Source: an uncultured Gammaproteobacteria bacterium (GTDB lineage Bacteria; Patescibacteriota; Microgenomatia; UBA10105; UBA927). Taken from it: 60,437 nucleotides of DNA. The first letter of the stretch is position 1; every line of letters starts with the position of its first letter. The translations under genes were made by a program, and so were the position numbers. The notes below the pieces were generated by a model. It saw nothing but the letters and a program-made list of their open reading frames with translations, made no database searches and was not told the origin of the DNA. The stretch covers positions 4,721-65,157 of the forward strand of contig CAYTZO010000003.1 of assembly GCA_964442525.1 (NCBI GenBank), given 5' to 3'. This document shows, in pieces, positions 25,958-60,437 of this stretch.

Positions 25958-27085
25958 ATGAAGGTTGTTGTAATAATCCCCACGTATAATGAGCGGGAGA
26001 ATATTGTTGAACTTCTGGAAAAACTCGATTCTGTTCGCGCACAACTAAAACACTATACAATTGTGCTTCTTGTTGTCGATGACAACTCACCTGATGGGAC
26101 CCAAGAGCGTGTTCGTCAATTTGCGCAGTCTCATAAAGACGTGTTTTTATTGACAGGACGGAAAGAAGGACTCGGAAGAGCGCTTCTGCGGGGCATGAAA
26201 TATGCCGTGGAGACCTTTGGAGCAGACACCCTTGTACAGATAGATGCGGATCTTTCTCACGACCCGAACAAGCTGCCTGAATTTTTGAAAAAGATTAGCG
26301 AGGGGGCTGATTTTGCTGTCGGAAGCCGGTACATTCCCGGGGGATCAATTCCTGCTAATTGGGGAATACACAGAAAAATCTACAGCGTAGTGGGTAACGC
26401 TATTGTAAGGTTTGGATTGGGGCATCCCGAAATTCACGATTGGACGGGCGGGTACCGTGCGTTCCGTAAAATCTATTACGAGCGTGCAAAAGAGCGCGTA
26501 GCGCGGTACAGCGGATATGTTTTCCAAATCGCATTCCTGCATAATGCGGTGGTCTCAGGTGCAAAAGTTAGAGAAGTGCCAATCCATTTTACAGACAGGA
26601 GATTTGGGAGATCGAAGATTGCCCCTCTTCATTATATTCTCAATATTTATCTCTATATTATTTCAACCCGACTCAAAGAGATTGTCCGGATGCAATTTTT
26701 TAAGTTTGCGGCGGTCGGAACAATCGGGTTTGTCATCAACACGATCGTCCTAGAGTTATTCGTACGGGTTGGTTGGCATCCCGCAGCGGCAAGTGCCTTA
26801 GGTGCGGAGGTTGCGATCGTTTCAAATTTTTTTCTCAATAACAGCTGGACGTTCCGTCATAGTAAAATTCGCGGAATAAAGATGGTGCCGAAATTTATCC
26901 AATTTAATCTCACGTCCGTGGGAGCCATTGTCATCCAAGCGGGTACGGTGGCAATGGGATCTTGGGTATTCGGCGTGCAGCGCTATCGCATATTTTATAT
27001 TATCGGGGTAGGTCTTGGTTTGATATGGAACTACATCATGTACTCTCTCGTAATTTGGAAGAAACACCATGCGCATACCAAATAA
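25958..27085 (+). CDS. polyprenyl-phosphate-sugar synthase-like GT2 (DPM1/GtrB-like) fused to a C-terminal GtrA-like 4-TM domain
   Basis: VVIIPTYNERENI, VVDDNSPDGT, IDADLSHDP, then FFKFAAVGTIGFVINT..FFLNNSWTF.. (GtrA pattern). Confidence 0.8.
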   Translation: MKVVVIIPTYNERENIVELLEKLDSVRAQLKHYTIVLLVVDDNSPDGTQERVRQFAQSHKDVFLLTGRKEGLGRALLRGMKYAVETFGADTLVQIDADLSHDPNKLPEFLKKISEGADFAVGSRYIPGGSIPANWGIHRKIYSVVGNAIVRFGLGHPEIHDWTGGYRAFRKIYYERAKERVARYSGYVFQIAFLHNAVVSGAKVREVPIHFTDRRFGRSKIAPLHYILNIYLYIISTRLKEIVRMQFFKFAAVGTIGFVINTIVLELFVRVGWHPAAASALGAEVAIVSNFFLNNSWTFRHSKIRGIKMVPKFIQFNLTSVGAIVIQAGTVAMGSWVFGVQRYRIFYIIGVGLGLIWNYIMYSLVIWKKHHAHTK

Positions 27086-28631
27086 ATTCCGCAGCCAACT
27101 CCTTGCAATAGGCATTCTCTTTGTCATACTTCTGGTCGGAGCGTATTTGCGTGTCTATAAGATTTCGGAATATATGACGTTTTTGGGGGACGAGGGAAGG
27201 GATGTGCTGGTTGTTAAACGGATGATTGTCGATGGTAAATTTACGCTTTTAGGGCCGACCGCCTCTGTGGGAGGGTTCTTCTTGGGCCCCATCTATTATT
27301 ATTTTATGCTCCCGTTTCTTTGGCTTTGGCGGCTCGATCCCAGCGGGCCGGCGGTAATGGTAGCTATCTTTGGGATTGCAACGATTTATATCGTTTATCT
27401 CGCCGGCAAGAATTTTTTTAATGACTGGGTTGGACTCATAGCCGCAGGCTTATATGCGGTATCGCCCCTTGTCATTGCATATTCAAGGTCTTCATGGAAC
27501 CCAAACCCCGTCCCATTTTTTTCAATTCTCCTTATGTATCTTCTCTGGCGTGCAACGTTCTCGAAGCGGCTGGTGGTGTATGGCGGGATTGGCATTGTGT
27601 TGGGTATAGGGTTGCAACTTCATTACCTTTTCAGTTTTCTTTTTCTTGTTGTCGCAGCCTACACTCTGTTGTTTGCAAAACCCGAGTCGCTTCTGCGAAC
27701 GTTCGTTGCCGTCGGAGCGGGCTTTATACTTGGGTATTTTCCATTTTTGCTGTTTGAAGTGCGGCACGGTTTTCCGAATACGCAGACCGTTATCCGGTTT
27801 CTCCTCACGGGTAAAGATACGGGATTTCAGTTTATGACGTTTGTTCAGAATATTAACGACGTTACTTTCCGCCTTTTCGGCCGTCTGCTTCTTCGTTTTC
27901 CACAGCCCGAATGGTGGTATCGATACACGGTTTGGCAGAAATGGGCGTGGCTTACGGGGACGAGGCTGTCTATTTTCATGAGCGTAGTAACGGTTGTCTT
28001 TTTATTATTTCAACGGCGTCTGGATGTGCGTCAACGGCGTGCATTACAGCTTCTTTCCGTGTGGTTTGTCACGACCATTGTTCTGTTTGGATTTTATAAG
28101 AGGGCCATATACGATTATTATTTTGGTATCGTTTTTCCGCTTCCTTTTCTTCTTATTGGCCTCATTTTTTGGCTTATCGCGCGAAGAAATGTTTTTGGAA
28201 AAGCTTTGACATTTTTTGCGGTTGGCGGGCTCGTATTTTTTAACTGGCAAGGAAGGCCGTTTCTTTTTCCGCCAAATAATCAGCTTAGTCAAGCAAAAAA
28301 TATTGCCGCGATCGCCCTGTCGAAAACGGAAGGAAAGCCTTTTAATTTTGCCCTCATCACTGGCCAGAATTCTGACTATGCGTACCGATATTTTTTTGAG
28401 GTATGGGGGCGTGCGCCGGTAACTATTGAAAATGAGATCAATGATCCCCGGCGCCGGACCGTCACCGATCAACTCATCGTCATTTGCGAGCTTCCGAAAT
28501 CCATGTGTCAGCCGCTTGGGAATTCTCTTTGGGAAATCGCCGGCTTTGGACGTGCGGAGATTGCCGGCGTTTGGGACGCGTCGTTTATTACTATTTATCG
28601 CTTGATTCACTATACCGGGGGTACACAGTGA
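27069..28631 (+). CDS. GT-C membrane glycosyltransferase, ArnT/PMT_2 (GT39/83)-like
   Basis: 520 aa, at least 10 TM helices. First-loop acidic motif FLGDEGRDVLVVKRM. Paralogue of the gene at 59560. Confidence 0.65.
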   Translation: MRIPNKFRSQLLAIGILFVILLVGAYLRVYKISEYMTFLGDEGRDVLVVKRMIVDGKFTLLGPTASVGGFFLGPIYYYFMLPFLWLWRLDPSGPAVMVAIFGIATIYIVYLAGKNFFNDWVGLIAAGLYAVSPLVIAYSRSSWNPNPVPFFSILLMYLLWRATFSKRLVVYGGIGIVLGIGLQLHYLFSFLFLVVAAYTLLFAKPESLLRTFVAVGAGFILGYFPFLLFEVRHGFPNTQTVIRFLLTGKDTGFQFMTFVQNINDVTFRLFGRLLLRFPQPEWWYRYTVWQKWAWLTGTRLSIFMSVVTVVFLLFQRRLDVRQRRALQLLSVWFVTTIVLFGFYKRAIYDYYFGIVFPLPFLLIGLIFWLIARRNVFGKALTFFAVGGLVFFNWQGRPFLFPPNNQLSQAKNIAAIALSKTEGKPFNFALITGQNSDYAYRYFFEVWGRAPVTIENEINDPRRRTVTDQLIVICELPKSMCQPLGNSLWEIAGFGRAEIAGVWDASFITIYRLIHYTGGTQ

Positions 28632-29380
28632 TACGCACATTCGTAACGGTTGTCGTCCCTGCATACAACGAAGCAACAAATATCCGCCTCGGTGCCCTCG
28701 AGAAAGTGTTGCATTACCTTGAGAAGCAGACATATCAGTGGGAAGTAGTTATTGTAAACGATGGCTCAACAGACGAAACAAAAGAACTGTTAGAAAACTT
28801 CTGTTCGTCAAATAGAGGATTCCGACTCGTCAATAACTCCCATCAGGGCAAAGCAATAACCGTGATGACCGGTATGAGTCACGCCCGGGGGGACATTGTT
28901 CTTTTTAGTGATCTGGATCAAGCAACGCCCATTACCGAGCTTACCGTGGTGCTTCCGTGGTTTGACAGGGGATATGACGTAGTCATCGGTTCCCGGCGGG
29001 GTCGTCGCGAGGGCGCACCCCTCATGCGGCTTGTCATGGCACGGGGATTTATGATTCTCCGCAGTATTATTCTTGGTCTTCATGGCATAACCGACACGCA
29101 ATGCGGGTTTAAGGCATTCCGCAAAGAAGTTGTACACGACATTTTCTCGCGTCTTAGGCTTTACAAAGATCACCAACGCGCCAGCGGCGCGATGGTGACA
29201 GCAGGTTTTGACATAGAGCTACTTTTTATAGCGAAAAAATTAGGATACAAAATCAAGGAAGTTCCCGTCGAATGGCATTATGTAGAAACCAGAAGGGTAA
29301 ATCCTCTCAGAGACTCCTGGCAAGGATTTATTGATATTGTGCGGATTAGACTCAACGCGCTCCGAGGTCAATACGGGTAA
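28628..29380 (+). CDS. GT2 glycosyltransferase, dolichyl/polyprenyl-phosphate beta-glucosyltransferase-like
   Basis: VVVPAYNEATNI, VIVNDGSTDET, FSDLDQATP, DTQCGFKAFRKEV. GTG 28628 gives a GTGA overlap with the upstream stop. Confidence 0.8.
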   Translation: MIRTFVTVVVPAYNEATNIRLGALEKVLHYLEKQTYQWEVVIVNDGSTDETKELLENFCSSNRGFRLVNNSHQGKAITVMTGMSHARGDIVLFSDLDQATPITELTVVLPWFDRGYDVVIGSRRGRREGAPLMRLVMARGFMILRSIILGLHGITDTQCGFKAFRKEVVHDIFSRLRLYKDHQRASGAMVTAGFDIELLFIAKKLGYKIKEVPVEWHYVETRRVNPLRDSWQGFIDIVRIRLNALRGQYG

Positions 29381-29388
29381 GTGGTTCT

Positions 29389-30525: not shown

Positions 30526-30613
30526 AGCCAGATTCTTGGAACTTTCTCGATTAGATTCTTCTAACGAATTTTACGTTTGCTCCCCTTTTGTTGCTTTGAG
30601 TATAATCGAATAT

Positions 30614-33663: not shown

Positions 33664-33665
33664 TT

Positions 33666-35327
33666 ATGTGGCGATTTATCGTGGGAATAAGCATAATAAT
33701 CCTTGCCTCATATTGGGCGGTTCGGCCTCTGTTTTCGCCGGGATTTTTTCCGATGCACGACGATACTCAGGTTGGGCGGGTGGTCGCGATGGGAGCGGCC
33801 ATACGCAACGGGCAATTTCCCGTTCGATGGGTTTCGGATCTGGGATACGGATATGGATATCCGATCTTTAATTTTTACGGCCCGTTGCCCTACTACGCAG
33901 GAGGGGCGCTGTACGCATTGGGAATGTCCGGACTCTCCGCGACAAAGGCGATGTTTGTTTTGGGTATGGTGCTTGCAGCCATTAGTATGTACTTTTCTGT
34001 TGTCCCTTTTCTTGGACAGGAAGGGGCAATAGCGGCCGGCATCCTTTATCTCTATGCGCCTTATCATGCGGTACAAGTGTATGTGCGAGGCGCGGTAGGG
34101 GAATTTTGGGCGCTTATTTTTTTACCGCTCATTTTTTGGAGCATTTTGTCAAGTTTTTCGGGCGTAGAGAAACAAAAGAAAGCAATTCTCGTAGGAAGTC
34201 TCGGACTTGCGGGGGTCATCGTATCTCATACTATTTTAGGTTACATTGTAATCGTTTTGTCGATGCTATCTCTCGTGGCGTTTTGGGCCGTAAGGATTTT
34301 TCAAAAAAGAGTAGAACGAAGTCTTCTGCGCACTCACGTACTTACGCTTCTTGCCGGTCTGGGAATAACGGCATTTTTTTGGCTTCCGGCAATTGCCGAA
34401 ATGCGCTACACTACCGTTGCCGCGCAAATCGGTTCCTCTGCCCGTTACACTGATCACTTTGTTTGCTTATCTCAACTTTGGAATTCGCCCTGGGGGTTTG
34501 GCGGATCTGTCCCCGGATGTTCAGACGGCTTGTCATTTCGGTTGGGTAAGCTTCAGATTTTAGGTGCAGGTGTTGCGCTTCTTCTTTGGTTCATAAGAAA
34601 AAAATTACGGGTGCCTCAGTTTATCTGGCTTGCATTTGGTATGACGATGCTTGCGCTATTTTTTATGCTTCCGGTTTCTTCATTCGCATGGACGGTCCTG
34701 CCGGGCTTTGCCTTCATTCAGTATCCCTGGCGTTTTTTGGTCTTTGCAATATTTGGGCTTTCTTTGCTTTCTGCAAGTCTCGTGGTCATCCCGAAAAACT
34801 CGCTTTTTCGTATACTAATCATGTGCATTTTAGCCGTTGGAACGATCATCTACAGCGCCAAACTATTCAGGCCTCAATATCTCTATGCGAGAGATCCAAA
34901 GGCATTTGAAAGCAGGGAAGAGTTGCGTTTTCGAGTCTCAAAAATCTCCGATGAATATCTGCCGGCGGCCATTGAGAGACCAAAAAGCGTTTCGGATGTT
35001 CCGAGCGAGGCCATTGTTCCTACCCAGTCTTTCCGTGTCGAGACGGAAATAGATCGCGAGACATATGCAAAGTTTATCCTTATGAGCACGTCGGATCAGA
35101 TTATCACCATCAACCGAGCATATTTTCCTGGGTGGAAATATTGGGTAAACGGCAAAGAGACAGAGGCGAAGCTGGTCCGGGGACTTCCTACCGTGCCGGT
35201 GCCACAAGGGTATTCGGTCGTCGAGATGAGACTTGTCAACACGCCGGTTCGTTCGCTTGCCAATGCCGTAAGTATCGTAACAATACTTTTTCTTATTTAT
35301 GCCTATGGGAAAAAAACCAACGCTTAA
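33666..35327 (+). CDS. large membrane protein of the PTPS-related-like family, paralogue 2
   Basis: FFPMHDDTQVGRVVAMGAAIRNGQFPVRWVSDLGYGYGYPIFNFYGPLPYY. C-terminal YFPGWKYWVNG module plus a final TM helix. Confidence 0.55.
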   Translation: MWRFIVGISIIILASYWAVRPLFSPGFFPMHDDTQVGRVVAMGAAIRNGQFPVRWVSDLGYGYGYPIFNFYGPLPYYAGGALYALGMSGLSATKAMFVLGMVLAAISMYFSVVPFLGQEGAIAAGILYLYAPYHAVQVYVRGAVGEFWALIFLPLIFWSILSSFSGVEKQKKAILVGSLGLAGVIVSHTILGYIVIVLSMLSLVAFWAVRIFQKRVERSLLRTHVLTLLAGLGITAFFWLPAIAEMRYTTVAAQIGSSARYTDHFVCLSQLWNSPWGFGGSVPGCSDGLSFRLGKLQILGAGVALLLWFIRKKLRVPQFIWLAFGMTMLALFFMLPVSSFAWTVLPGFAFIQYPWRFLVFAIFGLSLLSASLVVIPKNSLFRILIMCILAVGTIIYSAKLFRPQYLYARDPKAFESREELRFRVSKISDEYLPAAIERPKSVSDVPSEAIVPTQSFRVETEIDRETYAKFILMSTSDQIITINRAYFPGWKYWVNGKETEAKLVRGLPTVPVPQGYSVVEMRLVNTPVRSLANAVSIVTILFLIYAYGKKTNA

Positions 35328-36051
35328 TATTGTTATCCCGGTACACAACGAGTCCGGTGAGCTAGAAACCAGTGTGCGGACGCTCGTTCGTTACCTTTCG
35401 GAGAATTTAAAAGATTTTGTCTGGAGCGTGACTATTGCGGATAATGCCTCAACGGACAAAACGTACGACATTGCCCGGGCATTGATGAGGAAGGATGCAC
35501 GGATTCATGTAATTCATCTCAATCAAAAGGGCAGGGGAAGAGCCGTAAAATACGCATGGCAGCATTGTGCGGATGACGTTGTTGCATACATGGACGTGGA
35601 CCTTTCTACCGATCTTAAGCATTTTTCCCCTTTGGTCCGGTCGCTTACCAGGGGTTACGATCTTGCTATCGGGACACGTAACGCCAGAGGAAGCAGGGTA
35701 TACGGGCGCAACAGACTGCGTACGATAACGTCGAAAGGGTACATCATGCTTATTAAAACATTTTTTTGGGTACACTTTAGCGATGCGCAGTGCGGGTTCA
35801 AGGCCGCGACGCGCCACGCGGTTCGTTCGCTTATTCCCCACATTCAAGACAATGAATGGTTTTTCGATTCAGAGTTGTTACTTCTCGCGGAAAAGCTCGG
35901 TTATCATATTTATGAAGAGCCGGTTACGTGGGTAGATAATCCCGGCTCCACCGTACGGGTTCTCAAAACGGCGACCGGAGATCTCAGGGGTCTGGGGAGG
36001 ATGTTCGTCACAAGGCCATGGGTAAAGCTTCGCACATATGCCAGACGTTGA
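35299..36051 (+). CDS. GT2 glycosyltransferase, polyprenyl-phosphate-sugar synthase-like
   Basis: IVIPVHNESGEL, IADNASTDKT, MDVDLSTD, DAQCGFKAATRHAV. 29-nt overlap with the upstream gene. Confidence 0.8.
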   Translation: MPMGKKPTLNIVIPVHNESGELETSVRTLVRYLSENLKDFVWSVTIADNASTDKTYDIARALMRKDARIHVIHLNQKGRGRAVKYAWQHCADDVVAYMDVDLSTDLKHFSPLVRSLTRGYDLAIGTRNARGSRVYGRNRLRTITSKGYIMLIKTFFWVHFSDAQCGFKAATRHAVRSLIPHIQDNEWFFDSELLLLAEKLGYHIYEEPVTWVDNPGSTVRVLKTATGDLRGLGRMFVTRPWVKLRTYARR

Positions 36052-37483
36052 TATAGATATCGCGCTCATCAAAAAGAAGTCACTTCACGGGGTTGTCGCG
36101 CTAACCTCACGCACCTTTCTCCTCCAGGTGGTTGCATTCGCCGCAACGTTTCTCCTGACAATTTTTCTTTCTCCCGCAATTTTTGGCGTCTTTTATGTAG
36201 TGTCCGCGATTATCTCGTTTTTAGGATATTTTTCCGACGTTGGTCTTGCTGCAGCGCTTATCCAAAAGAAGGAAACACTGATGAGAGAGGATCTTGTTAC
36301 CACATTTACCATTCAACAAATGCTTGTGGCGCTCCTGACGGCGGCCGCCCTTCTTCTTTCAAATAAGATTGCACGCTTTTACGCGCTGGATACTTCAGGT
36401 CTCTGGCTTTTCCGTGCCTTGGTAGTTTCTTTTTTCCTCTCATCACTCAAAACAATTCCCTCCGTACTTTTAGAGCGGGACCTTGAGTTTCAAAAATTAG
36501 TCATCCCAAGTATTGTAGAGACAATTGCTTTTTATGGCATTGCAGTGTTTTTGGCCTGGCGGGGGTTCGGCATAGCAAGTTTTACGTGGGCGGTGTTAGT
36601 GCGCGGCATAGCAGGACTTGTTGTTATGTATGTGATTTCTCCCTGGCGGATAGGCTTTGGAATCAGGAGAGAATCTGCGCGCACACTGCTGCGCTTCGGC
36701 ATTCCGTTTCAGCTTAATTCCTTTCTCGGACTGGTTAAAGATGATTTATTTACGGTTTTTTTGGGCAAAATACTTACATTTTCAGAAGTGGGCTACATTG
36801 GGTGGGCGAAAAAGTGGGCAGATGTTCCTCTCCGACTCTTCATGGATGCCGTGATCAGAGTAACCTTCCCGGCATATTCGCGTCTCCAACACGATGCAAA
36901 GGTTCTCGGCACGGCGATAGAAAAGACGCTTTTTGGTTTAGCGGCCACCATATTGCCGAGCACCGTCGGGCTCATATTTTTTATGGCTCCCCTTATTTCG
37001 CTCGTTCCCAAATACGCAAAGTGGGAACCGGCACTCTTTTCTTTCTATCTCTTCGCAGTTGCGGCAGTTCTCGCGGGCTTTTCAACTCCGCTTACCAACG
37101 CATTCAATGCAGTGGGGAGAATCAAAATAACCTTATGGCTTATGGTTATGTGGACAGCGCTTACGTGGATTTTAGGCGTATGGTTTATATCGATATTTAG
37201 CTTTTCCGGATTCTCGATAGCTCTCGTTATTATCTCGCTGACGCTTGTCGTGGTGGTGTATATCGTAAAGACAATAGCGCCAATTCGGTTTTGGAAATCG
37301 ATTCGTATACCCCTGGTTGCGGCAGGCGTTCAGGCGGGATGGTATGCGTTTTTTGTCCGGTCTGCGCCGTACGTTTTCTGGAGGTTGGCGCTTGTGGGAT
37401 TATCTGGTGTTATACTGTATGCGGGCCTCCTGTGGATTTTTGACAGAGAAAAAATAATGAGTTTGATGCCCAAGAAGATATGA
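36038..37483 (+). CDS. Wzx-like oligo/polysaccharide flippase (MOP superfamily)
   Basis: 481 aa, about 12-14 TM helices. N-terminal KKKSLHGVVALTSRTFLLQVVAFAATFLLT pattern typical of polysaccharide biosynthesis protein/flippase families. Confidence 0.75.
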   Translation: MPDVDIDIALIKKKSLHGVVALTSRTFLLQVVAFAATFLLTIFLSPAIFGVFYVVSAIISFLGYFSDVGLAAALIQKKETLMREDLVTTFTIQQMLVALLTAAALLLSNKIARFYALDTSGLWLFRALVVSFFLSSLKTIPSVLLERDLEFQKLVIPSIVETIAFYGIAVFLAWRGFGIASFTWAVLVRGIAGLVVMYVISPWRIGFGIRRESARTLLRFGIPFQLNSFLGLVKDDLFTVFLGKILTFSEVGYIGWAKKWADVPLRLFMDAVIRVTFPAYSRLQHDAKVLGTAIEKTLFGLAATILPSTVGLIFFMAPLISLVPKYAKWEPALFSFYLFAVAAVLAGFSTPLTNAFNAVGRIKITLWLMVMWTALTWILGVWFISIFSFSGFSIALVIISLTLVVVVYIVKTIAPIRFWKSIRIPLVAAGVQAGWYAFFVRSAPYVFWRLALVGLSGVILYAGLLWIFDREKIMSLMPKKI

Positions 37484-38385: not shown

Positions 38386-38394
38386 TTACTATTC

Positions 38395-42366: not shown

Positions 42367-42403
42367 AACGCCTTGTTCGCGCTTCGCGCGGATTGGATGC
42401 GAT

Positions 42404-42424
42404 CCACGGCCGGTCGTGGTTTTC
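42404..42424 (+). terminator. rho-independent terminator candidate
   Basis: CCACG-gccggt-CGTGG hairpin followed by TTTT, 38 nt after the stop of YfhO paralogue 1. Confidence 0.4.
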
Positions 42425-49993: not shown

Positions 49994-50036
49994 AAATTGA
50001 CAGATAAATAGCGTTGTTCTTAAAGAAATCAAATGG

Positions 50037-50066: not shown

Positions 50067-50078
50067 CGCCTCAAATAA

Positions 50079-51701
50079 TTATTGGAGAGATACTATTTGG
50101 AAAACAAGCGATTGGTCACCGCGTCGGATTTTCTTTAACAGCGTTGCGCCTTCGGGAATCTTACACGTGCCGTAGTCAACGTACAAGATCCCCTGGTTGC
50201 CCGTGAGAGTTTTTGTTTTTTCATTGAGTCGAAGCGGGCATTCTTCCTGGGAGAATTCATAGGGGCCGAAGTTCACGCGGTCGAGGTCGGTCGTTTGCCC
50301 CTGCTTTGCCTCTGCCTGGAATTTTGCGGGATCATATTGGCTATAGAAGAGGAAGAAAATCGCGGGCGCTGATTCTCTATTGGTTATTACCGCCTTAGTA
50401 TAGGTTGGAAGGAGTTTGTTGATGCTCGGCACAAGCTCCTCGTACCCTTCGTTTCGATACCACGGCTTGTGTACCGGCAGGTGAATAAAATATTGATGTA
50501 TGAAGAAAGCTACGTTATAGAAAGCCAGCGTCCCAAGAACTATTGCGCCGGCCAAAAAGACGCGCTTCGGAAATCTATTTTTGAGATACGTTACTGCTGA
50601 CAGGATCCCAACTGCGCTTAGGACAGCAAAAGCCGGCCCGGCGAAGAGCGTCCGCTGAAGATTGGGGATATCATCAAAGGTTAACGCGCTGCCCACAGGT
50701 GCCAAAAGAGTCCAACCGATAATAAGCACATTTTCCTTATTGGGCCTTTTTATAAGCCTTATAAGTCCGATGAGGAGAAAGGGAAGCTCAACCAGATAGA
50801 GAAGACCCATTCCCGGAATGCGATACCTATCAGGCAGCCCCTTGTCGGTAAAGAGGAAGTTATAAGAGAAATGTGCTGCATAGTTTTCTAAAAATTGCGG
50901 GAGGTAGCCCGCGATTTTATTGTGAAAGAGTCGTGAGACAATAGCCCCCGTGCCTTGCACGCCGTCTTCACGGATATACTCGTTGAGAGATAACTGGGTA
51001 TTTTGCGAAGCAAAAAGGCTGACCGTGCGGATTCTTAATGAGAGGTTTGGGTTAGTGACGATGAATAATGTCGGTATTACAATCAAAGCAACGTAGAAAA
51101 GCATAGATATCGGCCTCTTTTTTGTGGAAAAAAGAAAGAGCATGAGGGGGATAAAAACGGGGAGGAAAGCCCGGGGCGCCTGATACACCAGGAGAGTGAG
51201 AAAGAAAGAGAGAAAAGATAATAAAATCCGTTTTTTTACATAAAGCAACACGCCAAGGATGATGAAAAATGTTACAACAATATTTTCCGTAGCCAGACGG
51301 GAAAGGTTGACGTGCCAAGGTGAAATTGCCATGATGAGTGAGCTAAGGAGAGCGAGTTTTTTGTTTTTGAAGAGTTCGTCAATAAAAAAGTAAACGACTA
51401 TGATTGTTAAACTGCCAAAAAGCGCACTTGCAAAACGAATGGAAAAGGCATTTAGGCCAAAAACCGCGATAAAGGGGATAGAAACGTAGGAATATCCCGC
51501 AGGGCTGTAGAGGAACGACTGAAGATGGAGGGGAAGAAAATTTCCGCTCATGTCACGGCCGGTTTTCAATATTGAAAAGGCGTTGTACCCAAGGAACGCC
51601 TCATCGCGATAAAGTCCAGCCGGAGTTTCTCCGAGTTTATAAAATCTTAGCAGGATGCCTATACCAATAATTAAGAAAAAAAAGAAATAACTTTTTTTCA
51701 C
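50079..51701 (-). CDS. GT-C membrane glycosyltransferase, GT39/PMT_2-like
   Basis: ILLRFYKLGETPAGLYRDEAFLGYNAFSI (DE motif in loop 1). 540 aa, polytopic. GTG start forms a GTGA overlap with the HAD gene. Confidence 0.75.
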   Translation of the reverse strand: MKKSYFFFFLIIGIGILLRFYKLGETPAGLYRDEAFLGYNAFSILKTGRDMSGNFLPLHLQSFLYSPAGYSYVSIPFIAVFGLNAFSIRFASALFGSLTIIVVYFFIDELFKNKKLALLSSLIMAISPWHVNLSRLATENIVVTFFIILGVLLYVKKRILLSFLSFFLTLLVYQAPRAFLPVFIPLMLFLFSTKKRPISMLFYVALIVIPTLFIVTNPNLSLRIRTVSLFASQNTQLSLNEYIREDGVQGTGAIVSRLFHNKIAGYLPQFLENYAAHFSYNFLFTDKGLPDRYRIPGMGLLYLVELPFLLIGLIRLIKRPNKENVLIIGWTLLAPVGSALTFDDIPNLQRTLFAGPAFAVLSAVGILSAVTYLKNRFPKRVFLAGAIVLGTLAFYNVAFFIHQYFIHLPVHKPWYRNEGYEELVPSINKLLPTYTKAVITNRESAPAIFFLFYSQYDPAKFQAEAKQGQTTDLDRVNFGPYEFSQEECPLRLNEKTKTLTGNQGILYVDYGTCKIPEGATLLKKIRRGDQSLVFQIVSLQ

Positions 51702-52297
51702 GGGAGTACTCCAAGTTTAACTAATTCATTCCGGAGCTGCTGCGGAGATTCAAATAACACCGTGTTTATGCCAATCTTTTTCGCTGGAATTAAAGAAGAT
51801 TCCTTGTCGTCGATGAATACTATTTTTTCCGGCAGGACTTTAATTTTTCGTAATGCGAACTCGTAGATTTTTGGATTCGGTTTGCGGACGCCTACGTCAT
51901 GGGAGAAAATACCTCCCTCAAACCATTTTAAAAATCCAAAGCGCTCGTCTAGTTTATCTGTTCGTTCCTTAACGTTATCAGATAAATAAAAGATTCGATA
52001 TTTTTTTGACAGTTCTAAGATAATATCCCGCGTTTCTTCGAGAAGATCGTAATAACTGATCCATTCTTTTTCAAGAACGTCTGGGTTTTCACGGATGTTG
52101 AGTTTTTGCAAAAAGTATTTCCAAAATTCATCGCGGGTGATTTTTGATTCCCTATACTGGGTACCAATTTCGCCGTCTGAAATGCTTACGACAAAATTTT
52201 CATCGAGGTTATACCGACGAGCTATGGCTTTATTAAATTTCTTCGTGCCATTCGTGAACAAGACGCCCCCGAGATCAAAGAGTATGACTTTAATCAT
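51698..52297 (-). CDS. HAD-superfamily hydrolase (subfamily IA-like)
   Basis: Motif I ILFDLGGVL, motif II S at LSDN, motif IV FIDDKE. Confidence 0.8.
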   Translation of the reverse strand: MIKVILFDLGGVLFTNGTKKFNKAIARRYNLDENFVVSISDGEIGTQYRESKITRDEFWKYFLQKLNIRENPDVLEKEWISYYDLLEETRDIILELSKKYRIFYLSDNVKERTDKLDERFGFLKWFEGGIFSHDVGVRKPNPKIYEFALRKIKVLPEKIVFIDDKESSLIPAKKIGINTVLFESPQQLRNELVKLGVLP

Positions 52298-55576: not shown

Positions 55577-57954
55577 ACGGCGACTAAAATTATTCCCGTT
55601 AGGCCTAGACTTATGATAGACACTTTTATGCCCAGTGCAAGTGAATCGGGAGTATAGACGAGATTAACCGTGTGATTTCCTTTGGGCACCCTCACGGCGC
55701 GGAAGGCATAGTCTGCCTTGTATATAGGGACAGGAGCGTTATCTACAAAAGCGCGCCAGCCGGGATAATACGTATCAGACAAGAACAGAAGCGCCTCCGT
55801 CACGGAGCTCGTTTTTATCTGTATGGCATTGGGTTGATACGAAAGCACCTGTACGCTTCCACCTGCAGAGACGGGGGGGTTAGGAAAATCCGTTTTCGAT
55901 ACTAAGACTTCTTTGGATGGATCAAAAGAGTCGTCAAAGAAGATCTTTGTAAAATCATTAGAATTTGCATACGTTTTTATCGTTGACGCCAGGAAAGCCC
56001 GCGGGGCCGCTTTGAGATTTTCATATACAACCCATCCATCCTGATTATAAATCGGTTTAAAACGGTCTGAAGGAAAGGTTATTGCCGTGCCTGCATTTTC
56101 TAGTCGGTCCAAAATGTACCGAACGCCCACGGCGTCGAGAACTTTGAGCCTATACGTGTTTTTTGGAAGGTCGTCGACGCCGAATCCCGGGGCAATAACG
56201 GCGTCTGAACGGGTGTTTGTAGTAAATTGCGTCAGAATGCTTCCCTGCCTGCTTGCAGACAAAAACTCGCCGTACCATCGGGGGTAGAGCGGATCGTAAC
56301 CGTCGGGAGAATACAGTTGAACTTGTGTCGCGAGGTTTGCCTCAACAGCAGCATTGCCATATCCCCAAAAACGATCAATACCCACTTTGGACTTTAAAAA
56401 GTTGATGATAGGCGCGGGCGGATAGACAAATGATGCTGGTACAAAAGGGTTAAATTTTTGGAAACCCATCCAAAGATCTCCTAGGTGGACGAAAAAGAGA
56501 ACAACGAGTGCAAAGGCCATACGTTTGGGACGGAGGATTGCTGCTGCAAAAGCTACTATGACCAACGACGAGATGGCAAATCCGTAAAGGCCTGCCCTAA
56601 GGGCAATATGAAATCTGTTTGGCCAAGGCGGAGGCACGAATTTTGTTCCTATGTAAAGGAGGAAGAAAAAGATAACAAAAAATCCGATAACAGTGATCGT
56701 GCGCCTCAGGAGTTTTGGGATGGAGTGATGCTCCGAAATCCATTCATCCACTCCGAAACCCGTGCCGATTGCGAGTAAAAAGCTCAACAAAAACATCATG
56801 AGTGTGGGATTGCTCGTTGACCAAAATGGGATTCTCGCTTGTGAAAGTACAAAACTTAGAGGGTTATTGGTAACAAGAAGGAAAAGCACTGCGATCGAAA
56901 TAAGAATGAATTTTATCAATGATTTGGATCGTAGCCTCCAAAGAGCGGGCAAAAAGAAAAGAGGGACAAGGCCAACGGAAGTAACCTTCGCAGCAAATGT
57001 ATCACTGGGCCAGTAGGAGCGTGTTGCTGGATTACCAAAGATATTAGGGAAGGCAAGCATCGCGAGTTGCCAAGGCTGGATCAGGAGTTTGGTCAACAAT
57101 TCCTGCGATGTATATGCACTTCTGGCAGAAAAACGTATCAGCTCGAAGCCGGGAATATATTGTATCGCCGCGATACCGATTGATAAGAGCGAGAAAAGAT
57201 TTATTGATAACGCCTCTTTCCAGGATCGGAATCGGACAAAACCATAAATCCAGGTGAATATCATCAGATAGCCAAAAAGCTGAGGATGTCCCGCCAGAGC
57301 TGAAGAGGTTAACGCAAAAAGATACAGAAGCAGCCATGGAGCGGATATCCGGTCTTTTAAAGTCTCGATAGCAAGGGCGACAAACGGAAGCCATGCCATA
57401 ACATGGCCGATGGAGTTGTATTCAACAATAACAGTCATTGCCGCACTGAAACCATAGGAAACTGCGGCAAACCAGGAAGCGATAGGACGAATACGAATTT
57501 TTCTTGCATAAAGATATGTAAACCAGATAGCTAGCATCGGCTGTAAGAACACGAGCACAGTCCACGCGGTGGTATCGGGTAAAAGAAGAAAGACAACGTT
57601 AGGCGGATAAAAGGGAGCAGACTGAAAGTTAGCAAGGAGCGGCGACCCAGAAAAATTATATGGGTTCCACAAGGGTAGCTGTTTTGTCTTAAGCTGGTTA
57701 ATAGAGAGCGTTTTCCACGGATACAACTGTCGGATGACATCGGGGTATTGTGCTTTATTTGGAATGGAGCCAGGGTTATATCCCCCATAGGAATAGGTGC
57801 GCCACGGTTTGTACTCGGCCAGAAGCAGGTCACCCGGGAATGGTATCAGCCCCAGGAGCGACTTATAAAAGAAAACGGCGGTTATCGCGATGCTTATAAA
57901 AAGCGACGATACTACCTCTTTTGCGGTTAAGCTAGGCGTTTGTTTCCGTACCAT
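55552..57954 (-). CDS. YfhO-like GT-C membrane protein, paralogue 4
   Basis: QLYPWKTLSINQLKTKQLPLWNPYNFSGSPLLANFQSAPFYPPN. C-terminal LSDTYYPGWRAFVDN..VPKGNHTVNLVY. ATG 57954 (MVRKQTPSL) preferred; the track ORF extends to 58143 inside the upstream gene. Confidence 0.72.
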   Translation of the reverse strand: MVRKQTPSLTAKEVVSSLFISIAITAVFFYKSLLGLIPFPGDLLLAEYKPWRTYSYGGYNPGSIPNKAQYPDVIRQLYPWKTLSINQLKTKQLPLWNPYNFSGSPLLANFQSAPFYPPNVVFLLLPDTTAWTVLVFLQPMLAIWFTYLYARKIRIRPIASWFAAVSYGFSAAMTVIVEYNSIGHVMAWLPFVALAIETLKDRISAPWLLLYLFALTSSALAGHPQLFGYLMIFTWIYGFVRFRSWKEALSINLFSLLSIGIAAIQYIPGFELIRFSARSAYTSQELLTKLLIQPWQLAMLAFPNIFGNPATRSYWPSDTFAAKVTSVGLVPLFFLPALWRLRSKSLIKFILISIAVLFLLVTNNPLSFVLSQARIPFWSTSNPTLMMFLLSFLLAIGTGFGVDEWISEHHSIPKLLRRTITVIGFFVIFFFLLYIGTKFVPPPWPNRFHIALRAGLYGFAISSLVIVAFAAAILRPKRMAFALVVLFFVHLGDLWMGFQKFNPFVPASFVYPPAPIINFLKSKVGIDRFWGYGNAAVEANLATQVQLYSPDGYDPLYPRWYGEFLSASRQGSILTQFTTNTRSDAVIAPGFGVDDLPKNTYRLKVLDAVGVRYILDRLENAGTAITFPSDRFKPIYNQDGWVVYENLKAAPRAFLASTIKTYANSNDFTKIFFDDSFDPSKEVLVSKTDFPNPPVSAGGSVQVLSYQPNAIQIKTSSVTEALLFLSDTYYPGWRAFVDNAPVPIYKADYAFRAVRVPKGNHTVNLVYTPDSLALGIKVSIISLGLTGIILVAVWKKQKTG

Positions 57955-59561
57955 AGACGTGATCCTACCAATACCAAAGCCGATATCACAGTGACAAGAT
58001 CGGATGCAAGCCGTATCGGACTTTCCGAAAAAACGGTTTTGACCATATGCGTTCCGGCAGGAATGGCAAAGGTAATGAGTCCACGATTGTTTGGATCCTG
58101 AAACTGGATGGGAACTTTTATGCCGTCCACGTAAACCCGCCATCCAGGATAGTACTGCGTATTGTCGACAAGCTTCGCCGGGGCGCTTGCAGTGACCATG
58201 AAAGAGTGCAGTTGCGTCTTTTTTACGAGATTGGAAATGGTAGCAGTCCCCTCAATGACGTCTATCCTATTTTTGGGAAAGCCCTTCGCGGGCCCGGCGG
58301 ACCAGATAAGATCAGTTTCACCAAAATAGGTAGTATTGAGAGGATAATTCCAAAAGTCTGATTCTTTTACTTGATCAAATCCCTGCGGCGGATACCAGTA
58401 GTAGGCAGTCGATGCGATAGTCAATATGATGAGTGTAAGATAAAGAAATTTATTCTTTAGAATGCCGACACCAACGAATGAGAGTGCCATGAACGAAGTT
58501 GTAAGGGTAGTAATCCCCAAAAGTCTCCAGGGAAACTGAAATTGCCGCAGGAGCGCAGTCCTTTCCCACAAAAATGTCGAGACCGGCTGCATCATAAAAA
58601 GTACGAGGATAGTTAAGACCAGAGAAAGGATGAGAAGAAGTCTCATAACGCGATTTTTTATCGATTTACGCAAAAGCACCACGCAGGTAAGCACCAGAGC
58701 AATGACGTGGAAAAGACCAAACTGAACGGAGACTTCACCAACCCGCAGACTCGCCCGGTCCGTAAGGTTCGGAATGAAAAAGTTAACGAGCGGCGGGAAG
58801 TATGCTTTATATAAATTGCGCATGAATAAATCGCCATACGTATACGAACGTTCGGCAAGAGCCGGAACCCAATAGAAAGCAGAGAGCGTCAGTCCCAGGA
58901 GAAGCGCCACGCCGATTGCCCAAAACGGTTTTTTCAACCCGGTCAAAGCGGCGGCATAGACGACTGCCAAGAGAAAAAAGACGAGACTCAGAGCATTATG
59001 AGAAATGATAAGAAGAGCAGTCGCTACAGACAAAAGCACTCCCGAAGAAATAACGGGGTTTTTGTGCATACGGGTTACTCCGTAAAGGACCAACGGCAAA
59101 AACGCGTAGGCATAGATGCTTCCGATACTTCCGCGCACAAGAATCTCTACGAGTCGGAAGGGCGCAAACTGATAAAAGACGGTGAGAAGAAAGGCTGTCT
59201 GTTTGTCACGAAATAGTTCTAGGGTAAACATATACATGAAAATTCCAGAAAGGAGAAAGCTAAGAAGAAGGAGGAGCTTGAATGAAACCACAAGACTTAT
59301 GCCGGAGAGCACAAGGAGTGACCCAATAACATATGGAGCGGGGTACATGAAGTTAAAAAGAGGCAGTCCATAGCCGTAGTTGAGGTCACCGGCCCACCGG
59401 ACCGGAATTTCTCCATCACGAAGAGCCTTAACGTAGGCAGCAATTCTGGGGAGATGCACACCTCCATCACTCGTATGCGGAAGATTAGGATTGAGGAAGA
59501 TGATCACGAAGGGAAGAACGGAAATTGCAAGGATCGCGATATAGTGCTTAAATGAGCTCAT
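57927..59561 (-). CDS. large membrane protein of the PTPS-related-like family, paralogue 4
   Basis: LPHTSDGGVHLPRIAAYVKALRDGEIPVRWAGDLNYGYGLPLFNFMYPAPY. C-terminal QYYPGWRVYVDG..IPAGTHMVKTVF plus a final TM helix. Confidence 0.55.
   Translation of the reverse strand: MSSFKHYIAILAISVLPFVIIFLNPNLPHTSDGGVHLPRIAAYVKALRDGEIPVRWAGDLNYGYGLPLFNFMYPAPYVIGSLLVLSGISLVVSFKLLLLLSFLLSGIFMYMFTLELFRDKQTAFLLTVFYQFAPFRLVEILVRGSIGSIYAYAFLPLVLYGVTRMHKNPVISSGVLLSVATALLIISHNALSLVFFLLAVVYAAALTGLKKPFWAIGVALLLGLTLSAFYWVPALAERSYTYGDLFMRNLYKAYFPPLVNFFIPNLTDRASLRVGEVSVQFGLFHVIALVLTCVVLLRKSIKNRVMRLLLILSLVLTILVLFMMQPVSTFLWERTALLRQFQFPWRLLGITTLTTSFMALSFVGVGILKNKFLYLTLIILTIASTAYYWYPPQGFDQVKESDFWNYPLNTTYFGETDLIWSAGPAKGFPKNRIDVIEGTATISNLVKKTQLHSFMVTASAPAKLVDNTQYYPGWRVYVDGIKVPIQFQDPNNRGLITFAIPAGTHMVKTVFSESPIRLASDLVTVISALVLVGSRLWYGNKRLA
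59525..59553 (+). promoter_or_regulatory. candidate promoter: TTGCAA, 17-nt spacer, TGC-TTAAAT (extended -10), embedded in the 5' coding region of the divergent gene
   Basis: -35 at 59525-59530 and extended -10 at 59545-59553. Six nt separate the -10 from ATG 59560. Confidence 0.4.
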
Positions 59562-60437
59562 GGCAAAGCGTATTAGGCCTTATTCGGAGAACAAACTTGT
59601 TTATTCCCAGATTATAGCACTCATCGGGGTACTGCTGGTGGCGGCGATTCTTCGTTTCTACAGAATCGCGGATCTCACGGAATTTCTTGGGGATCAGGGA
59701 AGGACCGGCATGGAAATACTCAGAGACTGGAGGGGAAGGACGCTCCCACTGGTTGGTCCCACCGTATTATCAGGCGAATATCTTGGTCCTGCATTTTATT
59801 ACATTATGGCTCCGGCATTTATTCTCGGCCGGTTTCATCCATTATCTGCGGCTCTCTGGACTGCAACGATCGGCGTTGCCGCCGTGGGAGTATTGTGGTG
59901 GATAGGCAAAGAACTTTGGGGGTGGCCCGCTGCTGCGATGGTTGCTTTCCTTTGGGCAGTGTCTCCTCAGATCGTTTCTTCAGACCGGGTGCTCTGGGAA
60001 CCCAATCTTATTCCGTTTTTTGCATTTTCCTTCGTATTGGGTGTACTGAAGATGCGAAAACGCGCTTCGTTTTTGTGGGGAGTCGTTACGGGGAGTGCGC
60101 TCGGCATAATAATTCAGCTCCAGTATCCTGCTTTTCTTTTTTTTGCTTTAACGTTGGTGGCGTTTATCGAAGTATGGTTGCGGGAAAAGAAGTTGTCCGG
60201 GGGTTTCGTTCGTGCGATTTTCGGATTGTTTACCGGCTTTATCATTGTTACGCTGCCGTTCGTGATTTATGAAAGCGCACGGGGATTCTCAGACATATTT
60301 TCGGTATTTGGGAACTTCCTCGCAGGCGGACAAGCGCCCCTCGCGAAGCGACAGATTCTTTCCAATATTCTTGACTACAGTAGTCGGGTGATGCGCCGAG
60401 TCGTTCCGTTCCCCGGCGGCTGGGAAACGGTATCGCT
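59560..60437 (+). CDS. GT-C membrane glycosyltransferase, ArnT/PMT_2-like, N-terminal part (3' end lies outside the window)
   Basis: This ORF is absent from the supplied track (no stop in the window). Frame 1 is open from ATG 59560 to the end: MAKRIRPYSENKLVYSQIIALIGVLLVAAILRFYRIADLTEFLGDQGRTGMEILRDW..LGPAFYYIMAP.. It is colinear with the N-terminus of the 27069 protein. Confidence 0.65.
   Translation, partial: MAKRIRPYSENKLVYSQIIALIGVLLVAAILRFYRIADLTEFLGDQGRTGMEILRDWRGRTLPLVGPTVLSGEYLGPAFYYIMAPAFILGRFHPLSAALWTATIGVAAVGVLWWIGKELWGWPAAAMVAFLWAVSPQIVSSDRVLWEPNLIPFFAFSFVLGVLKMRKRASFLWGVVTGSALGIIIQLQYPAFLFFALTLVAFIEVWLREKKLSGGFVRAIFGLFTGFIIVTLPFVIYESARGFSDIFSVFGNFLAGGQAPLAKRQILSNILDYSSRVMRRVVPFPGGWETVS

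Follow-up and report, generated by a model that had tools for sequence, protein, structure and literature searches.

Fourteen GT-C-type glycosyltransferase-like genes in 33 kb of a Microgenomates genome: a candidate locus for extracytoplasmic assembly of an envelope glycan

Introduction

The general framework for the glycosylation of envelope components outside the cytoplasmic membrane is given by the multi-component transmembrane glycosylation systems (PMC8035078). The examples considered here are GtrA/GtrB/GtrC, CsbB-GtcA-YfhO, GtlA/GtlB, CsdAB/CD/EF, GacI-K-L and ArnC-ArnE/F-ArnT. B. subtilis and L. lactis have three pairs of a GT-A and a GT-C glycosyltransferase (GT), and the characterised function of YfhO is the glycosylation of teichoic acids with C55-P-GlcNAc (PMC8035078). 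In this study we analysed a stretch of 60,437 bp from a small-genome groundwater bacterium of the Microgenomates (called the window; positions 4,721 to 65,157 of contig CAYTZO010000003.1, assembly GCA_964442525.1), which contains 14 genes for GT-C-like membrane proteins between position 27069 and its end.

Larger sets of such enzymes are found in the Corynebacterineae, where arabinogalactan and lipoarabinomannan (LAM) are made with over ten GT-C enzymes (Emb, Aft, Mpt, PimE). The mycobacterial and corynebacterial set for arabinogalactan and lipomannan (LM)/LAM comprises EmbA/B/C, AftA-D, MptA/B/C, PimE and Rv3779, and the mycobacterial cell-wall cluster Rv3779-Rv3809c contains about six GT-C genes in approximately 35 kb. 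An earlier note on this DNA, made from the sequence alone, had stated that bacteria typically use one or two such enzymes per glycoconjugate; in view of the three pairs mentioned above and of the Corynebacterineae that statement is too strong.

To our knowledge the envelope composition of the candidate phyla radiation (CPR, Patescibacteria) is essentially unknown. The surface of these organisms mediates their episymbiotic lifestyle and the contact with phages. We read the locus, with a probability of about 0.6, as the middle portion of an envelope-glycan locus which is conserved in Microgenomates (Gottesmanbacteria-type) and spans at least 40 kb, probably more than 50 kb. It would serve the lipid-carrier-dependent, mostly extracytoplasmic assembly or decoration of an envelope glycopolymer, of glycoproteins, or of both. 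The gene content, the family membership, the conserved catalytic-loop residues and the synteny on which this reading is built were directly observed.

The GT-C-type genes

In the open reading frame (ORF) listing 14 large and intact polytopic ORFs lie between 27069 and the window end, each at the place given in the earlier note (Table 1). They cover 73.8% of the DNA from 27069 to 60437 if the maximal ORFs are counted and about 72.7% with refined starts, which agrees with the previous estimate of roughly 70 percent. All of them match GT-C families in Pfam, nine above the gathering score (cut-offs: PTPS_related 26.4, GT87 25 and YfhO 28.5 bits). The division into four families which had been proposed in the earlier note is the one that Pfam gives as well: five proteins are PMT/PMT_2-like (A1 to A5), four YfhO-like (Y1 to Y4), four PTPS_related-like (P1 to P4), and one is GT87/MptA_B-like (D1). 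All four YfhO-like proteins match PF09586 over the full length and above the threshold. PTPS_related, PMT, PMT_2 and GT87 are members of the Pfam clan CL0111 (PMC7801869), and YfhO is treated as a GT-C enzyme (PMC8035078). A database protein identical to P4 (P0252) carries a precomputed assignment to PF10131, and one identical to D1 (P0001) to PF26314, a family which is named MptA_B_family on D1 orthologues. More than 900 homologues of D1 exist at 52-72% identity.

According to a crude hydropathy scan the 13 complete proteins have 7-10 transmembrane (TM) segments, and five were counted in A5, which is cut by the window end. The earlier note had reported an acidic motif in the first loop of the five PMT_2-like proteins. 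This motif is DE in four of them and DQ in A5, and an aspartate after the first TM segment is found in all 14 proteins of the locus. Family alignments were built from the window genes and the homologues extracted from 80 related loci (see below). The loop-1 aspartate is present in 100% of the 156 sequences of the YfhO-like alignment and in 90% of the aligned PTPS-like sequences. Among PMT-like sequences 98% have the aspartate and 88% the glutamate that follows it, which corresponds to the classical DE motif. D109 of D1 is invariant among 60 GT87/MptA_B-like sequences.

Structure models were made for P1 and D1. The AlphaFold2 model of P1 has a pLDDT of 90.8 and a pTM of 0.90. Compared with the PDB by Foldseek, its top 21 matches are all GT-C enzymes, with probabilities of 0.77-1.00 (1.00 for the first 15) and TM-scores of at most 0.49; they include STT3, AftD, ALG12, AglB, ArnT, PglB, AftA, ALG6 and EmbC. 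AftD is the second-best match by E-value and has the highest query TM-score (0.49) and the lowest rmsd (4.9 Å) in that list. At residues ~400-476 the model shows a C-terminal beta-sandwich between the GT-C core and the final TM helix, which partially matches the fold of domains of an alpha-L-fucosidase (6tvk) and of a putative glycoside hydrolase (2rdy). As modelled, this domain hints at a carbohydrate-binding module and at a glycan acceptor. When the PDB was searched by sequence with the PTPS-like profile, Y2, A2 and A3, no usable relative of known structure was retrieved.

Conservation of the locus

For the comparative analysis Y2 (43492-45753) was searched against one genome per GTDB species. 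The best of the 112 relatives obtained is 55% identical, and 80 loci were retained. Informative record titles name Gottesmanbacteria, Levybacteria/Levyibacteriota, Roizmanbacteria, Microgenomates and the Patescibacteria group, which confirms the CPR origin presumed in the earlier note. In all, the locus is syntenic in more than 80 Microgenomates metagenome-assembled genomes. A scan of JGI metagenomes with P4 gave three distant loci only. Long or complete records of the lineage indicate genome sizes of ~0.76-1.2 Mb.

BLASTP of all ORFs of the kept loci against the window proteins defines a conserved core with the order PTPS (P2), gt2b, wzx, gt2c, gt2d, gt2e, YfhO (Y1), gt4, YfhO (Y2) and gt2f, which is followed by a variable arm. 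An orthologue of P2 is found in 45 of the 80 loci (median identity 41%) and one of Y1 in 53, while Y3, which belongs to the variable arm, has best-hit orthologues in only 11. In the closest relatives the arm is arranged as in the window, namely methyltransferase, YfhO, minus-strand PMT, PTPS, PMT_2, YfhO and PTPS. Loci of the Levybacteria type carry a DPMS-like GT2 gene (DPMS, dolichyl-phosphate mannose synthase) followed by 3-5 tandem PMT/PMT_2 genes. Per 22 kb, 4-9 GT-C genes (median 7) are recognisable in those 44 loci whose length reaches 20 kb or more. The recurrent unassigned ORFs of the 80 loci comprise DUF2079 and GT87-like proteins, which are GT-C-like, a GT4, several polytopic proteins without a Pfam match and two non-polytopic proteins with a single TM segment. 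Since unassigned ORFs are DUF2079, GT87-like or proteins of 8-12 TM segments without a Pfam match, the GT-C counts are minimum values.

The synteny extends to both sides of the core. Around the D1 orthologues of two loci from independent assemblies (L084 and L086) the order is CAP, RmlA, (RmlC), RmlB, RmlD, UGDH, SDR (short-chain dehydrogenase/reductase), GT2:GtrA, PMT_2, GT2, MptA_B, PMT_2, PTPS-like, PTPS-like, GT2, Wzx, GT2, GT2, GT2 and YfhO. On the other side the Gottesmanbacteria record MFJV01000001.1 (1.02 Mb) and a second metagenome-assembled genome (MAG) keep the orthologues of A3, the HAD hydrolase gene, P3, A4, Y4, P4 and A5 at 55-73% identity and in the order of the window. The earlier note had observed that the array reaches the window end. 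Indeed, both records continue past the A5 orthologue with a GT87-like gene, three PMT/PMT_2 genes, an A1-like PMT_2 gene and a PTPS_related gene, that is with at least six more GT-C genes. The parent contig is 65,157 bp long, so the window misses at most 4.7 kb of it. As a composite of several genomes, the complete locus of this lineage probably contains at least 20 GT-C genes over at least 50 kb. The GT-C array is a conserved trait of the lineage and not peculiar to the source genome.

Two side observations were made in these records. Dozens of third-party 'binchicken' MAG records have the title 'uncultured Gammaproteobacteria bacterium', but the locus found in them (37-55% identity) is of the Microgenomates type, and therefore the Gammaproteobacteria label looks wrong. 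In a Gottesmanbacteria relative (L088, 17572-18456) an EamA/sugar-transport-type gene with 8 TM segments is located between the genes for the HAD hydrolase and the A3 orthologue; the window does not have it.

Candidate donor synthases, flippases and cytoplasmic glycosyltransferases

Eight cytoplasmic GTs had been described as interleaved with the GT-C genes. Seven of them, six GT2 and one GT4, are indeed located inside the array; the eighth, the GT2:GtrA fusion, is located just upstream of it. The Wzx-like flippase, the methyltransferase and the HAD hydrolase, which had also been recognised, match Polysacc_synt_3, Methyltransf_23 and HAD_2, respectively.

Three of the GT2 proteins are candidate polyprenyl-phosphate sugar synthases, as judged from their similarities. 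The GT2:GtrA fusion is most similar to ArnC, AglJ, PgfS and PpgS in NCBIfam; the 3' end of its gene overlaps the start of A1, and the GT2:GtrA-PMT_2 gene pair is kept in four relatives (L084-L087). The top NCBIfam similarities of gt2a are PgfS, dolichyl-phosphate hexose transferase and ArnC, and orthologues of 250 amino acids (aa) are found at the equivalent position in relatives. For gt2b the best relatives in the PDB are DPMS (5mlz, E 1.7e-11), ArnC and GtrB, and across 36 loci the median identity is 64%. All NCBIfam scores of the three proteins are below the equivalog cut-offs, and each of the three genes adjoins a GT-C gene. A flippase is represented twice, by the GtrA_DPMS_TM domain of the fusion protein and by Wzx. 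The presence of three DPMS/ArnC/GtrB-like GT2 genes in the locus suggests, indirectly, that the 14 GT-C-like proteins would use polyprenyl-phosphate-linked sugar donors. Lipid-carrier-dependent extracytoplasmic glycosylation, as the earlier note had proposed, is a reasonable assumption, which is strengthened by these three enzymes, the fused GtrA domain and Wzx.

Table 1. Features of the locus and its upstream neighbourhood. Coordinates are those of the window; bits are Pfam scores unless stated otherwise; L numbers denote loci of the comparative scan.
Feature	Coordinates	Strand	Evidence and remarks
GT-C no. 1, A1, PMT_2/ArnT-like, 520 aa	27069..28631	+	PMT_2 38.8 bits; 8 TM by hydropathy; loop-1 GDEGRD; exact database gene call
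GT-C no. 2, D1, GT87/MptA_B-family-like, 378 aa	29389..30525	+	GT87 21.5 bits, sub-threshold (cut-off 25)
GT-C no. 3, A2, PMT_2-like, 508 aa	30614..32140 (ORF opens 30536)	+	PMT_2 45.9 bits; TDE motif; PMT_2 orthologue at equivalent place in relatives
GT-C no. 4, P1, PTPS_related-like, 508 aa	32137..33663	+	PTPS_related 22.4 bits, sub-threshold; invariant D34, D35
GT-C no. 5, P2, PTPS_related/YfhO-like, 553 aa	33666..35327	+	PTPS_related 25.0, YfhO 24.8 bits; first gene of conserved core
GT-C no. 6, Y1, YfhO-like, 778 aa	40030..42366	+	YfhO 77.9 bits; D67
GT-C no. 7, Y2, YfhO-like, 753 aa	43492..45753	+	YfhO 93.9 bits; query of comparative scan
GT-C no. 8, Y3, YfhO-like, 812 aa	47555..49993	+	YfhO 83.4 bits; lineage-variable arm begins here
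GT-C no. 9, A3, PMT/PMT_2-like, 540 aa	50079..51701	-	PMT 46.1, PMT_2 31.7 bits; RDE motif; 63% orthologue in L088
GT-C no. 10, P3, PTPS_related, 537 aa	52294..53907 (ORF opens 53955)	-	PTPS_related 34.8 bits, above cut-off; 57% orthologue in L088
GT-C no. 11, A4, PMT_2/PMT-like, 564 aa	53882..55576	-	PMT_2 33.8, PMT 25.7 bits; QDE motif; 58% orthologue in L088
GT-C no. 12, Y4, YfhO-like, 800 aa	55552..57954 (ORF opens 58143)	-	YfhO 62.2 bits; D72; 57-58% orthologues in L088, L089
GT-C no. 13, P4, PTPS_related-like, 526 aa in database call	57927..59561	-	PTPS_related 23.4 bits local, sub-threshold; 62% orthologues in L088, L089
GT-C no. 14, A5, PMT_2-like, cut by window end	59560..60437	+	PMT_2 17.6 bits over 292 aa, sub-threshold; 55% identity to complete 453-/494-aa orthologues (L088, L089)
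GT2:GtrA, GT2 fused to GtrA/DPMS TM domain	25880..27085 (likely start 25958)	+	Glycos_transf_2 95 bits, GtrA_DPMS_TM 73 bits
gt2a, soluble DPMS/PgfS-like GT2	28484..29380 (true start probably ~28630-28640)	+	Glycos_transf_2 104 bits; precedes D1
gt2b, soluble DPMS-like GT2	35299..36051	+	Follows P2; NCBIfam PgfS/AglJ/ArnC
Wzx/MOP-family flippase	36038..37483	+	Polysacc_synt_3 161.7 bits; NCBIfam MOP flippase; in 58 loci
gt2c, cytoplasmic GT2	37480..38385	+	Glycos_transf_2 83 bits; in 59 loci
gt2d, cytoplasmic GT2, rhamnosyltransferase-like	38395..39309	+	Glycos_transf_2/Glyco_tranf_2_3; NCBIfam rhamnosyltransferase subfamily 70.6 bits, below cut-off; in 64 loci
gt2e, cytoplasmic GT2	39203..40066 (likely start 39293)	+	Glycos_transf_2 55 bits; in 66 loci
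gt4, cytoplasmic GT4 (GT-B fold)	42449..43495	+	Glycos_transf_1 82 bits; in 79 of 80 loci
gt2f, cytoplasmic GT2	45781..46695	+	Glycos_transf_2 83.6 bits; in 68 loci
S-adenosylmethionine-dependent methyltransferase	46692..47558	+	Methyltransf_23 104 bits; in 14 loci, mostly closest relatives
HAD-family hydrolase/phosphatase	51698..52297	-	Hydrolase/HAD_2; 73% orthologue at equivalent position in L088
RmlA-like glucose-1-phosphate nucleotidyltransferase	20871..21737 (likely start 20988)	+	NTP_transferase 182.9 bits; equivalent position in L084, L086
RmlB-like NDP-glucose 4,6-dehydratase	21750..22766	+	GDP_Man_Dehyd/Epimerase; syntenic in L084, L086
RmlD-like 4-ketoreductase	22655..23644 (likely start 22763)	+	RmlD_sub_bind 206 bits
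UDP-glucose/GDP-mannose 6-dehydrogenase (UGDH family)	23684..24982	+	Three UDPG_MGDP_dh domains; syntenic in relatives
GMD/Rmd-like SDR, GDP-6-deoxyhexose branch	24993..25949	+	PDB 2pk3 292 bits; NCBIfam gmd 194 bits, below cut-off
LTD membrane-anchored protein	17620-18435	+	N-terminal hydrophobic segment; lamin-tail domain 29.3 bits, sub-threshold; C-terminal TM helix
Sua5/YrdC-family gene	within 18461-19792	+	Pfam
CAP-domain membrane protein	19841-20740	+	Left neighbour of locus, kept in relatives

A model for the locus and its alternatives

The following steps are proposed. The sugar-nucleotide enzymes encoded upstream would provide the donors, from which gt2c-f and gt4 would assemble an oligosaccharide on a polyprenyl-diphosphate carrier at the cytoplasmic face of the membrane. 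Wzx would then flip this oligosaccharide. In parallel, the three DPMS-like GT2 enzymes would load polyprenyl phosphate with single sugars, and flipping of these might be achieved by the fused GtrA domain. Outside the membrane, the GT-C battery would draw on these few lipid-linked donors. It would elongate, branch and decorate a glycopolymer which is anchored in the wall or the membrane, and Ser/Thr/Pro-rich surface proteins might be decorated as well. Each GT-C paralogue would bring its own acceptor or linkage specificity. The conserved core would make a common scaffold, while the variable PMT/PMT_2/YfhO/PTPS arm would account for the lineage-specific surface chemistry. We infer donors and acceptor, the route of flipping and the sequence in which the enzymes act. 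Because Wzx and five cytoplasmic GTs are encoded in the core, a lipid-linked oligosaccharide would be built inside and then flipped. In that many GT-C enzymes would share few donors, the proposed system is closer to the assembly of mycobacterial arabinogalactan and LAM than to a simple decoration with one sugar.

Several points weigh against this model. Among the scanned window ORFs and the recurrent genes of the related loci there is no initiating phosphoglycosyltransferase, no Wzy, no WaaL/PglL-type ligase, no LCP ligase and no teichoic-acid gene, nor is there an acceptor-polymer gene (LtaS, Tag/Tar, LCP, Wzy, WaaL) among the scanned ORFs of the window. From a Wzx/Wzy-dependent pathway only Wzx and cytoplasmic GTs are present. 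Therefore the cytoplasmic branch and the attachment step are incomplete as modelled. Furthermore, five of the 14 GT-C-like proteins stay below their Pfam cut-offs: P1, P2 and P4 with 22.4-25.0 bits, D1 with 21.5 and the end-cut A5 with 17.6. The support from the structure of D1 is moderate only: its AlphaFold2 model (pLDDT 88.8) matches PimE (9dm5) with a probability of 0.99 and a TM-score of 0.44, at a Foldseek E-value above 0.1. Finally, the PMT-type families and the PgfS-like synthases would fit protein O-glycosylation equally well.

In the latter case the PMT/PMT_2/PTPS/YfhO paralogues would mainly glycosylate Ser/Thr/Pro-rich proteins which are secreted or anchored in the membrane, such as S-layer proteins, pilins or the LTD (lamin-tail domain) protein encoded 9 kb upstream, and different paralogues would serve different substrates or sugars as in actinobacterial Pmt, streptococcal PgfS/PgfM and the seven yeast PMTs. 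A3 and A4 have the DE motif and match the PMT family itself, with 46.1 and 25.7 bits; gt2a and gt2b have PgfS as top NCBIfam similarity, which is reportedly the donor synthase of a streptococcal protein O-glycosylation system directed at Ser/Thr-rich disordered regions; relatives possess tandem arrays of up to five PMT-type genes, and the LTD protein is membrane-anchored and has a long PT-rich linker. However, the core with Wzx and five cytoplasmic GTs is typical of the synthesis of oligo- or polysaccharide units, unrelated housekeeping genes intervene between the locus and the LTD gene, and in relatives the locus begins at CAP and RmlA. Moreover, the characterised MptA/B enzymes act on glycans. 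The same is true for the characterised relatives from the YfhO family, which act on teichoic acids and glycans (PMC8035078). As an alternative or additional role for the array, protein O-glycosylation has to be taken seriously, although we consider it less likely than the main reading; it is compatible with the assembly of an envelope glycan and does not exclude it. Alternatively, some YfhO- or PTPS-like proteins could be en-bloc oligosaccharyltransferases or polymerases for the polyprenyl-diphosphate unit flipped by Wzx, and would thereby replace Wzy, WaaL and LCP. The presence of Wzx with no gene for Wzy, a ligase or LCP found in the locus would be explained in this way, P2, Y1 and Y2 are located in the conserved core around wzx, and STT3, AglB and PglB, which are oligosaccharyltransferases, are among the best structural matches of P1. 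The matches to STT3 and PglB, however, reflect the shared GT-C core and are no better than those to AftD and ArnT, which use monophosphate donors, the YfhO proteins characterised so far use C55-P-GlcNAc (PMC8035078), and the missing genes may be located elsewhere in the genome. We regard such an en-bloc transfer as improbable.

A lipid A modification of the ArnT (GT83) type was considered and rejected, because only a generic PMT_2 match was obtained, genes for ArnA, ArnB and ArnD were not found, and the SDR resembles GMD/Rmd and not ArnA. Four CPR genomes were reported to be devoid of lipid A genes (PMC3812714). An artefact would have been conceivable too, as the contig is metagenome-assembled and its gene families repeat: the array could be a chimeric or collapsed assembly of paralogous regions, a concern already raised in the earlier note, a recent duplication or a set of decaying duplicates. 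The GT-C-type genes are of ancient divergence. The paralogues within a family are only 25-38% identical, the longest direct or inverted repeat in 20000-60437 has 46 nt at 72% identity, and the GC content is even (0.44-0.49); hence the locus is not chimeric. All ORFs are intact and tightly packed, and orthologues with 55-73% identity occur in equivalent order in independent assemblies from different studies, the order recurring in dozens of MAGs. Together these data rule out an artefact, and the chance that it could still account for the array is negligible.

Beyond the envelope-glycan locus as such, a far-reaching proposal can be made, although we consider it speculative and rather unlikely. 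According to it, Microgenomates would build their principal envelope glycopolymer almost completely outside the membrane by at least 20 GT-C enzymes from one locus of ~50 kb (~5% of a genome of ~1 Mb), convergent with mycobacterial arabinogalactan and LAM. YfhO- and PTPS-like enzymes would replace Wzy, WaaL and LCP, and the variable arm would determine a lineage-specific surface chemistry which governs the attachment to the host or the recognition by phages.

Precursor genes, neighbouring genes and gene starts

Genes for dTDP-6-deoxyhexose, UDP-glucuronate and GDP-6-deoxyhexose-type precursors had been noticed in front of the array. Directly upstream the window indeed encodes RmlA/B/D-like proteins, UDP-glucose dehydrogenase, a GMD/Rmd-like SDR and the GT2:GtrA fusion. 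The best PDB relative of the SDR, 2pk3, is GDP-6-deoxy-D-lyxo-4-hexulose reductase. By tblastn with the RmlC of L084, which is encoded there between RmlA and RmlB (1903-2379), no RmlC was found in the window; L086 has none either. Consequently the dTDP-sugar may be a 6-deoxy-D-hexose and not L-rhamnose, unless RmlC is encoded elsewhere in the genome.

The left neighbour of the locus is a CAP-domain protein, and in relatives an ORF of 81-82 aa (DUF5656, weak) is located between the CAP and RmlA genes. Further upstream, housekeeping genes for t6A (threonylcarbamoyl-adenosine) tRNA modification are located between the LTD gene and the locus. Besides the Sua5/YrdC-family gene, they comprise a small ORF with the P-loop-type motif LYGELGSGKTT (within 18461-19792), which we take to be TsaE-like, and a short ORF after Sua5/YrdC, presumably TsaB-like. 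The LTD protein contains a Pro/Thr-rich linker of ~60 residues (PTPTPTALPTPSPTDTPAPTPTFTPAPTPTPTPS...). It is a plausible substrate of O-glycosylation, though its gene is not adjacent to the locus; to name it as the acceptor of the locus is pure conjecture. Still further upstream (14840-17614, plus strand) three genes lie together, which encode an FtsE-like ABC ATPase, an FtsX that has an extracellular domain, and an M23 peptidase carrying a PcsB-like coiled coil; this looks like a Gram-positive-type cell-division hydrolase module.

Eight of ten ORF translations which were looked up match the database gene calls on the 65,157-bp NCBI contig exactly. The ATG starts used for A2 (30614), P3 (53907, minus strand) and Y4 (57954, minus strand) are internal to slightly longer ORFs, which open at 30536, 53955 and 58143, respectively. 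The maximal ORFs of rmlA, rmlD, GT2:GtrA, gt2a and gt2e open at an upstream TTG, GTG or ATG (20871, 22655, 25880, 28484 and 39203). As the additional 26-52 residues have no counterpart in the orthologues, the true starts are probably internal (20988, 22763, 25958, ~28635 and 39293). P4 and A5 point away from each other. Taken as maximal ORFs, P4 starts at 59561 (minus strand) and A5 at 59560 (plus strand), so that they share 2 nt and no room would be left for an intergenic promoter. In the database the P4 protein of 526 aa starts 18 codons further in (~59507), and this call gives a gap of ~52 nt between P4 and A5.

A scan of the locus for sigma-70 promoters performed no better than on shuffled sequence, and operons were not defined in this way. 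The scan for terminator hairpins showed a mild enrichment over shuffles only. GC-rich hairpins followed by T-runs are located after the rmlD-like gene (23644-23663) and between Y1 and gt4, which are 83 nt apart (42340-42419). In operons that are otherwise tightly packed, these hairpins might act as internal terminators or attenuators.

Comparison with known systems

Literature searches on CPR or Microgenomates in combination with GT-C enzymes and glycosyltransferases revealed no description of the locus, with incomplete coverage of the literature; the earlier note, too, knew of no characterised system of this composition. Closest to it comes a general comment that glycosyltransferases are abundant in CPR genomes (PMC3812714). 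The array is the densest one of GT-C genes of which we found any mention. We estimate that the locus makes up several percent of a genome of ~1 Mb. Together with its density and its conservation across Gottesman-, Levy- and Roizmanbacteria-type genomes, this strongly recommends it as a candidate for the chief determinant of the surface glycan in this group. The cell-surface glycan to which it points would be unusually elaborate and is so far uncharacterised. The locus provides a testable set of genes, namely the pairs of donor synthase and GT-C enzyme, the conserved aspartate residues, and the core with its variable arm. In addition, hundreds of sequences are supplied for the poorly characterised PTPS_related and YfhO-like families.

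With the multi-component transmembrane glycosylation systems the locus shares the GT-A polyprenyl-phosphate sugar synthase, the GtrA- or Wzx-type flippase and the polytopic GT-C protein with an acidic loop motif. The YfhO and PMT_2 families are the same, and GT2 and GT-C genes are adjacent, as exemplified by GT2:GtrA and A1. In contrast, known organisms have one to three dispersed GT-A/GT-C pairs for one sugar each, whereas at least 14 GT-C genes and only three candidate synthases are found here in one locus. Moreover, the locus includes PTPS_related and MptA_B-type members, and teichoic-acid and lipid A genes are absent from the window.

The streptococcal and lactococcal loci for rhamnose-rich cell-wall polysaccharides (gac, rgp, cwps) likewise combine dTDP-6-deoxyhexose genes, cytoplasmic GT2 and GT4 genes (one GT2 being rhamnosyltransferase-like), a flippase of the Wzx type, a GtrB-like synthase and PMT_2-type GT-C enzymes for the side chains (PMC8035078). 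However, their backbone is exported by an ABC transporter and their GT-C genes number only one or two, while the window has no RmlC and the locus contains no ABC exporter, LCP or GacH-like gene. With the GT39 protein O-mannosyltransferases (yeast PMT1-7, actinobacterial Pmt) and the streptococcal Pgf system the locus shares PMT/PMT_2 matches, the DE motif, multiple paralogues and a DPMS/PgfS-like synthase. In contrast to those, Pfam finds no MIR domain here, and the genes are part of a polysaccharide-type locus with Wzx and many cytoplasmic GTs.

The mycobacterial system resembles the locus in that many GT-C specificities are fed by very few polyprenyl-phosphate donors, that the polymer is built outside the membrane and that the genes are partly clustered; D1 is MptA_B/GT87-like and P1 has an AftD-like fold match. 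The differences are that no Pfam matches to Emb/Aft (Arabinose_trans) and no decaprenyl-phosphate-arabinose genes were found here, that YfhO, PTPS_related and PMT_2 dominate, and that the genes belong to an unrelated phylum with genomes of ~1 Mb and are packed much more densely (14 in 33 kb). Every component of the locus comes from a known family, and it is not a new kind of system. New are its scale, with 14 GT-C genes in 33 kb and likely at least 20 in the full locus, the mixture dominated by PTPS_related and YfhO, and the conservation across a CPR lineage.

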